The position numbers and the translations under genes were made by a program. This document shows, piece by piece, positions 13,410 through 26,814 of a DNA stretch of 64,000 nucleotides. The notes under the pieces were generated by a model, which made no database searches, was not told where the DNA came from, and was given only the letters and a program-made list of their open reading frames with translations. Source of the DNA: Escherichia phage AV123; the sequence record OR352953.1, one strand, 5' to 3'. Numbering within the stretch: position 1 is the first letter of the stretch; each line of letters begins with the position of its first letter.

Positions 13410-13961
13410 ATGCGGATTACTGATAAGTATGTGTTCTTCTTTTCAGCAAAAGATGAATTTAGCAACTGGTATCTATCATCTTTTATTGAACCTTTAGCAC
13501 CCAAGTATAATAATTCTATTACAAGTTCTGTTGAATTTACTTGTGTGGAACAATATATGATGTGGAGAAAAGCATGTTTGTTTTATGATTACAGTATTGC
13601 ATCTTCTATTTTAACCGGAGATCTAAGATATACAGGAGAAAAAGAACAAGCATATTATAAGCGACTAGGCAGATTAGTTAAAGATTATGATGAAGATACC
13701 TGGACTTCTTTACGGGAGAAGATTGTCAAACGTGGTTTGTATCTTAAATACACACAAAATGAAGATCTCAAAAATAAACTTATAACCTACGCAGATAAGG
13801 AGTTCGTAGAGGCAAGCCCTTATGATTCTATTTATGGTATCAAAATGGGGATGTGGGATCGTGACGTGGAAAATAAGGACTGTTGGAAAGGACAAAATCT
13901 TTTAGGAAAATGGCATACAGACCTTGCTGTTTATCTAAAAGCACAATCTGATATTTCCTGA
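13410..13961 (+). CDS. NADAR (YbiA-like) domain protein
   Basis: 183 aa; FF.S..EFSNW, VEQYMMW.KA, SPYDSIYGIKMG, NLLGK motifs recalled from NADAR/DUF1768. Confidence 0.6.
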   Translation: MRITDKYVFFFSAKDEFSNWYLSSFIEPLAPKYNNSITSSVEFTCVEQYMMWRKACLFYDYSIASSILTGDLRYTGEKEQAYYKRLGRLVKDYDEDTWTSLREKIVKRGLYLKYTQNEDLKNKLITYADKEFVEASPYDSIYGIKMGMWDRDVENKDCWKGQNLLGKWHTDLAVYLKAQSDIS

Positions 13962-14175
13962 TATTTTGAAAATTTTTATTTTTATAAAAAGGGGTGTGGG
14001 TTTCATGTACGGAAATTCACCCTCTGAATAATATATTCAGAGTAAATATTATTTTGTACTCTGTTAATAAATTATTTAATTTGTTTGTTGGATTATGATA
14101 TCTGGTTTTTAAAAGGCATACTATCTCTTAACTACTATTTATAACAGAACAGTAAAATCATTTTTATAAAAAGGA

Positions 14176-14382
14176 CAAAATTATTTAAAGTTTTTACAGA
14201 TTTTTGGATACAAATTTTGAAAATGAAAAGTTCAAGTTTGGTCAAAATTATTTAAAGTTTTTGTATGTATTTCTATCCAGATTTTGAAAATGAAAACTTC
14301 AATTTTTTAAAAATTCCCCAGTTTATTTAAAGTTTTTTTGCCTTTTTCCGTAGAAAAATCAAAAATGAAAAGTTCAATTTCG
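14176..14382. repeat. three tandem ~65 bp AT-rich direct repeats
   Basis: units at 14176, 14243, 14320 sharing ATTTAAAGTTTTT...ATTTTGAAAATGAAAAGTTCAA. Confidence 0.7.
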
Positions 14383-14400
14383 TGTTTTTATAGGTGTGTT

Positions 14401-14513
14401 AATGAGAATCATTTTCGTTTGTAAATGAGAATCATTATCATTTAACTATGTAAGTGATAATCATTCTCACTAAGAGAATGAGAATCATTAGCAAATGAGA
14501 ATTTTTCTCATTT
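14401..14513. promoter_or_regulatory. cluster of five Fur-box-like palindromes (ATGAGAAT-C-ATTCTCAT family)
   Basis: copies at 14401, 14424, 14454, 14474, 14493; one symmetric substitution from E. coli Fur core TGATAATCATTATCA. Confidence 0.5.
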
Positions 14514-14774
14514 AGAGAATAACGCGCAGGGGTGGTGTTTGTCTCGCGCTCCCGTGTCCCCTCGCCATACAATAAGAATAGCATAACCAACAACAAAAGC
14601 AAGCGATTATTTTTATCTTTACATTTCTTTACAAATTTATTTTAGACGAGCTACCAGCGATCAACCTTCCAACCAGTGCCCCCTGGTATGTTAGCCCCGC
14701 CTTTACGCCGTGGGGATGGCGCTTCCTCTTCTGTATGTAAAACAGTATAAGCCCGATCCCTGGGCTTGTCAAGA

Positions 14775-15041
14775 TTATTTTTTGTTTTCTTGCCAGGATA
14801 GGACACCTAACCAAAAATACATGTCGCCCCGCGCCCCTGGCGGGATCTTGCTTTCCCCGCCGCCACTGCAAGCCCATAGATAACCATTTGCGAACGTATC
14901 AAAATGATCTATTTCTTCCACCTTATGATCGCCCAGGTTGAGAACGGTTTCAACCTTTAAGCCCGTTGCGCTTGCTACCTGGTGCACCGTGCCGCCTTGC
15001 CAGCCTAATGAGTGCATGAGGTGTGAAGTAGTATTTGTCAT
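14775..15041 (-). CDS. hypothetical protein in GC-rich island
   Basis: 88 aa; ATG 15039-15041 with AAAGGG RBS; GC-rich unlike surroundings; overlaps a second ORF (14629-14877) in another frame. Confidence 0.35.
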   Translation of the reverse strand: MTNTTSHLMHSLGWQGGTVHQVASATGLKVETVLNLGDHKVEEIDHFDTFANGYLWACSGGGESKIPPGARGDMYFWLGVLSWQENKK

Positions 15042-15152
15042 GGTATCGCCCTTTCTTTGATGTGCGCCCTGGTTGGCGCGGTAGAAAGATAATAGCCCTT
15101 TCCTTTATAGATAGCAAGCAAAAAAGAAATGAAAAAAAGATTAAAAAAGGGG

Positions 15153-15181
15153 TTGACGGTTGGAACGATTAACGCTATTTT
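15153..15181 (+). promoter_or_regulatory. candidate sigma70 promoter
   Basis: TTGACG-17-TATTTT upstream of 15247 ORF. Confidence 0.3.
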
Positions 15182-15246
15182 GTTAGCCGTTCCAGTGTGG
15201 ATCACTGTAGCAATTGTTGTTTCAATCATTCTATAAGGCGCACACT

Positions 15247-15387
15247 ATGAGCAAGGTAATTAATCATAAAGAGTTAAACCCTACCCTTTCAATGAGTGAA
15301 TGTACCGATGGTTTTTGGCTGTATGATGATACGCGCGGTATGAATTTAGCCATGCGTGAAAAAAACAGAAGAGGCGGCGTATATTAA
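15247..15387 (+). CDS. small ORF (46 aa), possibly 5' part of a frameshifted gene
   Basis: ATG 15247; ends shortly after an A7 tract (15359-15365). Confidence 0.35.
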   Translation: MSKVINHKELNPTLSMSECTDGFWLYDDTRGMNLAMREKNRRGGVY

Positions 15388-15529
15388 AGCCCTGGGCTAC
15401 TATCAGGAGCGATTAAAGGAAGTAGAAAACAATTATAATAACCTAAAAGCAAAAGTAGATCACTTTATCAGCCAGGTAGCTCATGACGACGATGATCACT
15501 ACTGCGAACAATGTGGATCATATAGTTAA
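15356..15529 (+). CDS. small ORF in +1 frame, possibly 3' part of a frameshifted gene
   Basis: open from 15350; GTG at 15356; coiled-coil-like sequence; overlaps upstream ORF at the A7 tract. Confidence 0.35.
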   Translation: MKKTEEAAYIKALGYYQERLKEVENNYNNLKAKVDHFISQVAHDDDDHYCEQCGSYS

Positions 15530-15547
15530 AATTATCTAAAAATATTC

Positions 15548-15607
15548 TTGACAACGTTTTTTAATCTGATAAGATGTAACAAATAAGGCGGGAAGTGGTT
15601 TCCCACC
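15548..15607 (+). promoter_or_regulatory. promoter plus leader stem-loop cassette 1
   Basis: TTGACA-16-TAAGAT then GGCGGGAAGTGGTTTCCCACC hairpin, RBS, ATG 15633. Confidence 0.6.
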
Positions 15608-15632
15608 AGGCAATCAAAGAAAGGGTAACACA

Positions 15633-15995
15633 ATGAGCAAGCAAATCAATACTATCATGTTAAACCTGGTATCTTTCCGCGATGACGTGAAAAACCTTCC
15701 GCGTGATGCAGTGGATGCACGGATCGAAAGCTATCGCACACAGATCGCAACATTACCGTTAAAACGTGATCAACATGCCGCTAATATGATGCTTGATGCT
15801 ATGATTAAAAAGATGATTCAGTGTGATATTACCCTGGCTTATGAATATGCTGGCGATCTATTTGTAACATACAATAAACCCGTTCCAGGTATGAGCACAA
15901 CCGAAGAATTGCATGCCTTAAATCTGAGACAAGATGCATGGGATAACATGCGCCGTGTTATGGTATGGGTAGAAAGCGGCAAAATTTACGCGTAA
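15633..15995 (+). CDS. hypothetical early protein
   Basis: 120 aa; AAAGGG RBS. Confidence 0.6.
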   Translation: MSKQINTIMLNLVSFRDDVKNLPRDAVDARIESYRTQIATLPLKRDQHAANMMLDAMIKKMIQCDITLAYEYAGDLFVTYNKPVPGMSTTEELHALNLRQDAWDNMRRVMVWVESGKIYA

Positions 15996-25074: not shown

Positions 25075-25087
25075 ATAACATTTCAAA

Positions 25088-25116
25088 CAAGGGCGCTTAT
25101 TGCGCCCTTTCTTTTT
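25088..25116 (+). terminator. rho-independent terminator
   Basis: GGGCGCTTATTGCGCCC then TTTCTTTTT. Confidence 0.65.
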
Positions 25117-25321
25117 ACCTAAATAAAGATGATAGCTTTTACCTATCAAAAACGTTCACCGAAAAAAGTGAATAGATCGCGGTATCGAGCTAATCAAGGA
25201 GCAGATGAACAACCATACCATGAAGATCATAAGGCGCTTACAACGTGTTTTAGACCGCTTATTTTTAATTTCTTCATGTAATTACCTGGCAAAAACAGCC
25301 TTTTTCTTGTCTTTCCTCTTA

Positions 25322-25392
25322 AATGATAATCATTCTTATTTATAGCTGATTATTTATGCAATAAATTGCATAATGCAATAATGAGAATCATT
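25322..25392. promoter_or_regulatory. two Fur-box-like palindromes
   Basis: AATGATAATCATTCTTAT at 25322 and AATGAGAATCATT at 25380. Confidence 0.45.
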
Positions 25393-25801
25393 CTTAACTT
25401 AAGACCATCTAACCTATAAAATAATAAGTTATCTAACTAAATTAAAACTAATTATCTCACCTTTATTTATAACTTACTGTTACTATCTCATTGATAACAT
25501 TGTATTAAACAATAATAACTAATATAAATCATTACTAAGCTAAATATAATCTATCTAACCCTTAAAACTACAATTATAATCTATCGAATTGTTGCACAAA
25601 GTAACTATTAAATTGTTAGTAACATTACTAAATAATTCACATCCTATCTATTTATGATCTAATCTTTACCTTCCTATCTATTACTTAGATAATCATTTCA
25701 TACAGTAACCATTTCATGTAGTAATCATTCCATACAATAACTATAACAAGAAATATAATTCGCAAGCGTATCATTAGCAGCCTATGCCGGACACATAGGC
25801 G

Positions 25802-25948
25802 GCTAATAATAACGCAACTACACACCCCACATAATAACCATCACCGATAGTTATTATTTGTGCTTATGTAGCTTGCAACAATTGCAAGCGCAACAATATA
25901 CTAGGGTATATTGTATCCCTTACATTGTTGCGGTGCGTTATTATTAGC
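25802..25948. repeat. long-range inverted repeat with internal palindromes
   Basis: GCTAATAATAACGCAAC at 25802 versus GTTGCG(GTG)CGTTATTATTAGC at 25927; inner ACAATATAC..GTATATTGT. Confidence 0.6.
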
Positions 25949-26241
25949 TAATGTTTAGAACATTGGCTATAATATAAGCTATCCAATAATAAACATGGTG
26001 AATAATGACACTGATGATCATAATGCGCCACCCTCCAGGGGGCGCTATGTGAACACAAAGAAATCTTTCTTGTCAAGAAAAATATCACCATTATTGCGCA
26101 AAATTATTTATATCTGAATAGATGATTTTTCATACTATTGCCCCCTTGATTATTACCATTTGTTGAGCCTACTTTCTTAAAAGCGCAATAAAATAGAATT
26201 ATATTGATTTTTAGTCGGTTTTATAGTACAGAAAGTATGCA

Positions 26242-26456
26242 AATGATAATCATTATCAGCTATCTTCCACGGGTGGCACTATTTCACACCAGATCATTTC
26301 ATTTGGCAAGGTGTATATAGATGTTTAGACTTGCCAAGCCATTGATTTCCTTAGAATTTATCTGTTTTGTTGTGAGTAGTACCTTTCTTGCTTAGAAAAT
26401 AATCAAAAGTCTTATAAGTCATTGAATGATAATACAAATGATAATTATTCTCATTG
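26242..26456. promoter_or_regulatory. Fur-box-like sites
   Basis: AATGATAATCATTATC at 26242 (15/15 to Fur core) and GAATGATAAT..ATGATAATTATTCTCATTG at 26424. Confidence 0.5.
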
Positions 26457-26814
26457 ATATTTGAGGGGGACGGTCGGCAGAAATCGGGGGGTGCTGAAAA
26501 TCGCGTTAAGCACCTCTCGCAAGCGAGCAGTATTTTGCGGCAAGTTATTGATATTATTGACTTTACGCTTATGAAAAGGGGGTGTGTCGAAATAAATCGG
26601 GTATACCGGAAAATTTTTGTGGCATAGATATTTATTTGTCTATATTATGTACAAAGGGGTGTGTTAAAAATAATAGGTATATATAGAATAATTGATAGGG
26701 AATATCTATACTAATTCCTCCATTAATGATATTCCTATGCTACTGCTCTTGTAATAGATGAAAAGACGCTGTATGATGTGTGGCATGAAACGTAAACTTA
26801 TAAAGGAGTCTGAT

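Follow-up and report, generated by a model that had tools for sequence, protein, structure and literature searches.

The locus described here raises a simple question: what are three A+T-rich direct repeats doing in a part of a phage genome that holds no gene? The 64,000-nucleotide (64-kb) stretch of DNA that we analysed, hereafter the window, belongs to a phi92-like phage (Justusliebigvirus, Stephanstirmvirinae), a group with genomes of ~147 kb, and the 1.2 kb around the repeats are 97-99% identical to the Escherichia phages VEcB, phi92, BME3, inny and about 50 others. The repeats are placed inside an 813-bp gap without genes, flanked on the left by a NADAR-domain gene (13410-13961, plus strand) and on the right by a homologue of phi92 gp224 (14775-15041, minus strand). 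The record of phage inny carries a bare 'repeat_region' annotation over them, and no functional description of the repeat locus was found in the records and literature searched. A preliminary description of the sequence had likened the repeats, together with neighbouring palindromes, to an origin of replication or a packaging region. Another direct repeat, of 46 nt (15235-15280 and 15621-15666, 72% identity), lies right of gp224 in a divergent promoter region; it marks the RBS and initial codons of a pair of small plus-strand paralogues, whose products begin MSKVINHKELN... and MSKQINTIMLN....

Three direct units, all on the plus strand, were delineated within 14176-14382: unit 1 (14176-14242), unit 2 (14243-14317) and unit 3 (14318-14382), with start-to-start spacings of 67 and 75 bp. 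Each of them carries two 15-mers, box A (TTATTTAAAGTTTTT; 14181-14195, 14248-14262 and 14323-14337) and box B (AAATGAAAAGTTCAA; 14221-14235, 14288-14302 and 14363-14377), and the distance from box A to box B is 40 bp in every unit. Box A is exact at 14181, 14248 and 14323, any further match in the 64 kb having at least two to three mismatches; box B is found at 14221, 14288 and 14363 with 0, 1 and 0 mismatches, respectively, and all other matches in the 64 kb need three. Tandem Repeats Finder (TRF) reported the interval 14176-14306 (period 67, 2.0 copies, 82% matches), and a repeat search returned three in-register 79-nt copies at 14160, 14227 and 14302, again spaced by 67 and 75, of which copies 2 and 3 showed 73% and 71% identity to copy 1. 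Repeat searches and motif scans thereby reproduced the unit starts given in the preliminary description (14176, 14243 and 14320) as well as the shared motifs. Its portrayal of the units as tandem repeats of ~65 bp was right as to three direct units, but not as to the second spacing, with unit 3 beginning 75 bp after unit 2 rather than 65-67. The same account had placed the units in an AT-rich element beside a palindrome cluster, and this is borne out by the energetics of the locus: its least stable duplex, a candidate unwinding region of 79.7% A+T at 14029-14328 in which the units sit, ranks second in instability among the 300-bp stretches of the window by nearest-neighbour energy.

What the units lack points to a function at the DNA level. 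They contain no ORF (the longest open stretch in the window's units is 32 codons), no consistent sigma-70 promoter (a single 9/12 site in one unit) and no RNA fold better than that of shuffled sequences (z -1.8 to +1.05), nor do they have a fold in common. Inspection of both strands in several lineages revealed no -35/-10 hexamer pair shared at a fixed position of the unit, and the possibility that the units are tandem sigma-70 promoters, as T7 A1-A3, was discarded for want of such a pair. Neither DnaA (TTWTNCACA) nor IHF (WATCAANNNNTTR) sites were found within 13900-15700, and A-tract phasing, as an indicator of intrinsic curvature, was unremarkable (rank 15 of 510). A resemblance to the T4-late-like TATAAATA, read as TTTAAATA on the minus strand of box A, was dropped because it is absent from Vequintavirinae units; likewise, small ORFs or leader peptides were dismissed, their ATGAAAAGTTCA starts not being conserved outside Justusliebigvirus. 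Some records do annotate ORFs over the repeats, namely BIS47_205 (L009, 978-1322), PVP-SE1 gp202 (L007, 1171-1455) and J-01 CDS0264/0265 (L176). These ORFs (PHROG 25933) span the repeat block and are probably spurious, since two to three forward frames are open at once in Vequintavirinae and their translations are of low complexity; the multiple open frames over the Vequintavirinae repeats are a composition effect.

Homologous gaps were compared in GenBank phages, IMG/VR and metagenomes, covering the Stephanstirmvirinae (Justusliebigvirus, Phapecoctavirus and KP2025-like phages) and the Vequintavirinae (Seunavirus, Certrevirus, Mydovirus, Henunavirus, Avunavirus and others). A metagenome scan with a 16-nt pattern produced mostly random matches, with eight true relatives by covariance model among the loci listed. 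Many related phages share this block in an equivalent position, which excludes a chance origin of the repeats. Common to all lineages of both subfamilies is an order of modules that runs from two to three GATATTT motifs and GAAAT runs (a module that sometimes also holds TTATCTCAAA-like motifs) through the direct repeats and one to five Fur palindromes to a G+C-rich stretch, a promoter-like site termed P2 with two TGTAAAG motifs, a structured element and a second promoter-like site, P1. At the left edge of this conserved non-coding module in the window, two copies of CTGATATTTC with the GATATTT motif (13948-13966; TRF period 10) overlap the end of the NADAR gene, and KP2025, PVP-SE1, CR8, pEa55, L030/L044 and LTH01 have two to three GATATTT motifs in the corresponding position. 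Immediately before unit 1, which it abuts, ATTTTTATAAAAAGG (14160-14174) is an exact second copy of 13978-13992, as revealed by the repeat search.

Seven lineages from both subfamilies have three units with a distance of 138-145 bp between unit 1 and unit 3. The individual spacings are 67+75 in the window, 66+75 in KP2025, 138 in total in ESCO13, 75+67 in PVP-SE1, 74+67 in BIS47, 74+71 in pEa55 and 78+63 in CR8, and TRF detected a period of 67 in both subfamilies. In LTH01, the units are shorter and number four to five (ACTTGAGRGGTTTTTC), likewise over 141 bp, and the outlying lineage L030/L044 (IMG/VR contigs) has two long direct repeats and different palindromes. Unit 3 is preceded by AAATTCCCCAG in the window, KP2025, L029, L075 and L112; as this holds in several genera, the triplication must be old and the copies orthologous. 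Lineages differ from one another in the sequence of the unit itself, and phages that infect E. coli are no exception; copies within one genome are alike, and the resemblance of box A to the Vequintavirinae core (ACTYGAKMGGTTTTTC) appears weak in our own alignment. The Fur palindrome, unlike the unit sequence, is identical across the lineages compared. We infer from these patterns that the units may be read by a co-evolving phage protein and the palindromes by a host protein of fixed specificity; the binder of the units would, being lineage-specific, presumably be encoded by the phage.

The repeats are also constrained within the genus. In an alignment of 12 Justusliebigvirus genomes, 7 of the 207 columns of the three repeats were variable (3.4%), compared with 28/214 in the left spacer (13.1%), 20/301 in the NADAR gene (6.6%) and 25/267 in the gp224 gene (9.4%). 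The repeats are under purifying selection, and their constraint is stronger than that of the flanking genes. No column varied in the TGTAAAG linker (14581-14639; 0/59) or in P1 (0/29), and the Fur array was the most variable part (62/138), to which a deletion in phage arall contributes. Within the units, a single one of the 105 box columns was variable as against 6/102 in the rest (one-sided p ~0.06, a value that rests on only seven variable sites). Direct orientation, regular spacing, conserved number and span, and boxes more constrained than spacers together uphold the iteron-like behaviour proposed in the preliminary description. On this evidence, it seems probable to us that the units constitute a functional array of protein-binding sites in DNA.

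Two sorts of palindrome accompany the units. On their left, the palindrome CTCTGAATAATATATTCAGAG, followed by a T-rich run on the plus strand, does exist as previously described, but at 14022-14042, ~4 nt to the left of 14026-14046 as originally given. It probably terminates the plus-strand operon whose last gene is the NADAR gene; in phi92 and inny, only its outer CTCTG/CAGAG pairs are retained. On their right, palindromes with AATGAGAATCATT cores form an array at 14398-14512 (sites at 14398, 14421, 14450 and 14474, and a further palindrome at 14494-14512). The adjacent palindrome cluster of the preliminary description is thus real, yet it is not a generic one: four sites within 95 bp match the Fur consensus GATAATGATAATCATTATC, a 9-1-9 palindrome, at 15-16 of 19 positions, and AATGAGAATCATT forms the central part of the classical Fur operator of aerobactin (iucA). 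Accordingly labelled as Fur boxes here, the palindromes appear to be near-consensus operators to which the Fur protein of the host would bind.

In the window, there are 18 matches to AATGAGAATCATT-core palindromes (5.5 expected), with clusters at this locus, at 25.3 kb and at 26.2-26.5 kb, and 26 positions reach at least 14/19 of the Fur consensus (5.9 in shuffles); the other Fur sites lie at 25319-25395, 26239-26257 (17/19) and 26434-26458. The same Fur palindrome is present in all enterobacterial-phage lineages, and a Fur box is missing from the lineages L017, L030 and L044. In L030/L044, the Fur palindromes are replaced by inverted GTGATAGT or ACTATCA-like motifs, 250-130 nt to the left of the structured element, and the same scaffold seems to bear other operator sequences there, possibly for another host. 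Clusters of Fur boxes are confined to gene-free regions, where they lie beside the three repeats and, in phi92-like phages and Vequintavirinae, within or next to the direct terminal repeats (BME3/window, Gotham and KPP-1; loci with Fur boxes include L047 1-170, L050, which is KPP-1 116713-116775, and L046 1150-1690). Judged by their sequence, these clusters suggest that virulent phages use Fur for control or titrate it. Literature searches for Fur boxes in phages, for rV5 transcriptomes and for PVP-SE1 repeats gave nothing relevant.

Further right, two promoter-like sites on the minus strand both point toward the Fur boxes and the repeats. P1 (TTGACA-17-TATACT; 14744-14772) matches the consensus at 11/12 positions and has counterparts of 9-12/12 in 19 lineages, with spacers that are unrelated to each other. 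The P1 spacer of the window (14749-14767) is a G+C-rich hairpin with T runs after it on both strands, which probably doubles as the gp224 terminator. P2 (TTGCTT-16-TATTCT; 14575-14602) is predicted from consensus and conservation: its orthologues reach 9-10/12 in most lineages with variable spacers (TTGATC, TTGCAA or TTGACC, then 16-17 bp, then TATTAT, TATATT or GATAAT), and the site in the window is weaker. Directly upstream of P2, a pair of TGTAAAG motifs 10 bp apart (14617-14633, minus strand; CTTTACA on the plus strand) is conserved in nearly all lineages. Just downstream of P2, a G+C-rich stretch (GAGACAAACACC..CCTGC..CATTC; 14519-14566, minus strand) is conserved in sequence, and RNAalifold found no consensus fold in it, for which reason a terminator hairpin that we had seen by eye (14527-14575) was withdrawn. 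There is no ORF downstream of P1 and P2, with no minus-strand ORF of at least 40 aa between 13962 and 14437.

Downstream of P1, which would drive its transcription, lies a structured element of ~105 nt with two hairpins and a pseudoknot helix (14637-14747, minus strand). It is probably an RNA. In an alignment of 20 sequences (A1), 91% of cells were paired, while shuffles gave 80% and slid controls 25-44%; both sides were changed in eight pairs, for instance CCCC/GGGG to CCAA/TTGG, CCAG/CTGG or CCAT/ATGG; and the covariance-model match was 108 bits. No Rfam family matched at the gathering threshold, and matches up to E 10 were at chance level. The element extends across Stephanstirmvirinae and Vequintavirinae, and it is also found in other large phage contigs (L012, L025 and L043) without repeats or Fur boxes. 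Since L025 and L043 have the element without the repeats, RNA element and repeats are separable modules. Pectobacterium phage P7_Pc (L010) carries two diverged copies of the element.

Could the repeats mark a packaging signal or a physical genome end, as the preliminary description had allowed? The arrangement does recall lambda cosB, where three spaced R sites serve the small terminase, in that three spaced repeats extend over ~120-140 bp, but the repeats here are located away from the genome ends. The phi92-like phage BME3, 98% identical to the window at the repeat locus, has a 342-bp direct terminal repeat as determined by PhageTerm (PMC12210895). This terminal repeat maps to 26166-26507 of the window (taken from the record start) or to ~26239-26580 (taken from the annotated feature), which places it in the gene-free region 25075-26757, ~12 kb to the right of the three units. 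Among relatives, KPP-1 has terminal repeats of 514 bp (PMC9862379), 8.5 kb from its own copy of the locus, and the Vequintavirus Gotham has terminal repeats of 459 bp (PMC7471380), which lie within its large non-coding region, the copy of the locus being absent from its last 25 kb. Although the LTH01 record ends inside the repeat locus, joining both ends restores the locus, so that this end reflects an assembly arbitrarily opened there. With the terminal repeats of BME3, KPP-1 and Gotham all lying elsewhere, we reject the packaging or terminus reading, to which we grant hardly any probability.

Some side observations concern the BME3 ends. In the BME3 record (L052, PP239276 146300-147371), the end repeats positions 132-788 and 1-342 of its own start, the annotated terminal repeat contains N's, and the deposited ends partly look like an assembly artefact, which blurs the repeat boundaries by ~70 bp. 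In the 1.7-kb gene-free region 25075-26757, which holds the physical ends according to the BME3 mapping, TATCTMA motifs are clustered (25430-25684) and the DNA reaches its lowest stability in the window (25407-25706); this region is an alternative candidate for an origin or for packaging recognition.

Our best guess, albeit a tentative one, is that the array serves as an internal origin of replication. We favour this reading on account of the iteron-like sites, their position in the second least stable DNA of the window, the two promoters aimed into them and the fact that the origin of this phage group is undefined, skew analysis in the rV5 genome paper having only tracked transcription (PMC3606486). 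In all three units, over ~141 bp, a phage protein would occupy box A and probably also box B, and would distort the neighbouring, easily melted DNA at 14029-14328. P1 (14772-14744) and P2 (14602-14575), both of host type, would fire non-coding minus-strand transcripts toward the repeat block, and these transcripts could activate initiation or supply its primers, in the manner of the T7 primary origin or T4 oriF/oriG. The Fur operators (14398-14512), placed between promoters and repeats, could gate transcription from P1 and P2 by iron status.

Among known systems, transcription-activated phage origins and iteron origins provide the closest analogies to how the locus would work, and to their features it adds Fur operators and a structured RNA. 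The T7 primary origin, with its tandem promoters phi1.1A and phi1.1B, and T4 oriF/oriG are transcription-activated phage origins. The present locus shares with them promoters that are aimed into A+T-rich, melting-prone DNA without a gene (two in tandem, as in T7), an internal site at ~8% of the genome from one end and, at the ends, short direct terminal repeats; it differs by promoters of the host sigma-70 type and by the triple repeat and Fur operators that intervene between promoters and A+T-rich DNA. Iteron origins, such as lambda ori with its O protein and those of the plasmids P1, F, R6K and pSC101, have contiguous iterons of 19-22 bp. In common with these, several direct repeats of one orientation lie beside A+T-rich DNA, and the repeat sequence is lineage-specific with copies alike within a genome; on the other hand, the units here are 63-78 bp apart rather than contiguous, lie outside genes and come without DnaA/IHF sites and without an adjacent initiator gene. 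The ColE1-type system, with RNA II as primer and RNA I as antisense RNA, likewise features a structured non-coding RNA that is transcribed from its own strong promoter toward a putative start, possibly with an antisense promoter opposite. However, there is no sequence or Rfam relation to ColE1, and the RNA element described here also exists without the repeats; no similar plasmid DNA was found in a search for plasmid relatives of the locus.

Several observations temper the origin reading. No initiator-like gene was found among the neighbours of the repeats, namely the NADAR gene, genes of unknown function, one for a CapR/T5orf172 endonuclease and one for an AAA ATPase that resembles DnaC or clamp loaders only weakly; neighbouring genes are not conserved between the subfamilies, and gp224 is not homologous to its Vequintavirinae counterpart. 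GC skew in the window follows only the orientation of genes and transcription and gives no replication signal. Against an origin at this site also speak the region 25075-26757, which is even less stable as well as repeat-rich and could equally hold it, and the separability of RNA element and repeats in L025 and L043.

The strongest rival, which we regard as unlikely though well ahead of the remaining ones, sees in the repeats an upstream element, regulatory or architectural, that serves the adjoining locus of non-coding RNA and Fur boxes, in which sites for a phage regulator set the activity of neighbouring promoters. Its targets would be either the minus-strand transcripts that enter the repeats or a possible Fur-repressed promoter on the plus strand. 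Fur-repressed promoters such as that of iucA have the Fur box between the -35 and -10 hexamers, and a Fur box does lie between -35-like and -10-like hexamers here, in the spacer of TTGAAT-18-CAGAAT in Vequintavirinae and of GCAAAT-18-GAGAAT in the window (14493-14524); a plus-strand transcript from this candidate would be antisense to the structured element. In all lineages, repeats, Fur boxes, P2 and P1 follow one another in a fixed order and orientation, which is likewise consistent with such an element. However, the -35 hexamer of the window is poor, the conserved GAAT persists in the lineages without a Fur box (L017, L030 and L044), a region of ~500 bp with five repeat families far exceeds known small-RNA promoters and a downstream gene is absent on either strand. 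Still less credit is due to the idea that the units act as RNA modules of minus-strand read-through from P1 or P2, which we consider quite improbable: while both promoter-like sites aim at the units and a convincing terminator in between is absent, the units fold no better than shuffles and each differently, are nearly pure A/U and are conserved in two short boxes rather than in paired segments. Finally, there is hardly any room for a tandem duplication that is neutral or for a small gene that has been overlooked. The ORFs annotated in some records (BIS47_205, PVP-SE1 gp202 and J-01) would favour the latter, but the 32-codon maximum of the window and the low-complexity, simultaneously open frames of the Vequintavirinae argue against it, and the triplication is older than the split of several genera, with repeats that vary less than the neighbouring genes.

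Alternatively, the repeats may belong to a protein-titrating or DNA-anchoring region, with Fur at the palindromes and another factor at the units, that reprogrammes the host or pauses or positions the genome; we give this only a slim chance. Its model is Repeat Region 3 in the terminal repeat of phage T5, a conserved, maze-like set of repeats close to the injection stop site, whose palindromes are listed without naming a binding factor (bioRxiv 10.1101/866236). Both are long, conserved untranslated regions with direct repeats and palindromes, and the Fur-box-like palindromes are shared in sequence: T5-like phages match the Fur-box part of our locus inside their left terminal repeat, where the Fur boxes lie beside two DnaA boxes and a perfect LexA box. 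The Fur boxes in the terminal repeats of BME3/window, Gotham and KPP-1 fit this idea as well. Yet the T5 region is part of a 10-kb terminal repeat, has DnaA boxes and a LexA box, and comes without the three A+T-rich units and without the structured element. Besides, the unit boxes differ among phages of the same host and are therefore not the site of a common host factor. It also counts against titration or anchoring that we know of no two-step DNA entry in rV5- or phi92-like phages.

Returning to the internal origin, one may push this reading further towards an iron-gated start of phage DNA replication, or a replication-linked switch, although we see little probability in it. Transcripts made by host RNA polymerase from the tandem promoters, one of them a new pseudoknotted RNA, would have to cross the Fur operators to reach the iterons, and initiation would thereby be tied to the supply of iron that the phages' own ribonucleotide reductases require. 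The Fur arrays in the terminal repeats of these phages and of T5-like phages might follow the same logic.

In a limited literature search, we found no account of virulent phages conserving host Fur operators in regions free of genes, nor of the promoter-driven structured RNA of this locus, which is absent from Rfam. The rV5/phi92/PVP-SE1 group of large virulent phages, widely used in cocktails for phage therapy and biocontrol, has so far had no defined origin, and the present locus offers a concrete, deeply conserved candidate of ~800 bp with separable parts. If the origin reading is true, it would aid phage engineering, e.g. replicon design and the choice of safe deletion sites, and would link phage replication to the iron status of the host.
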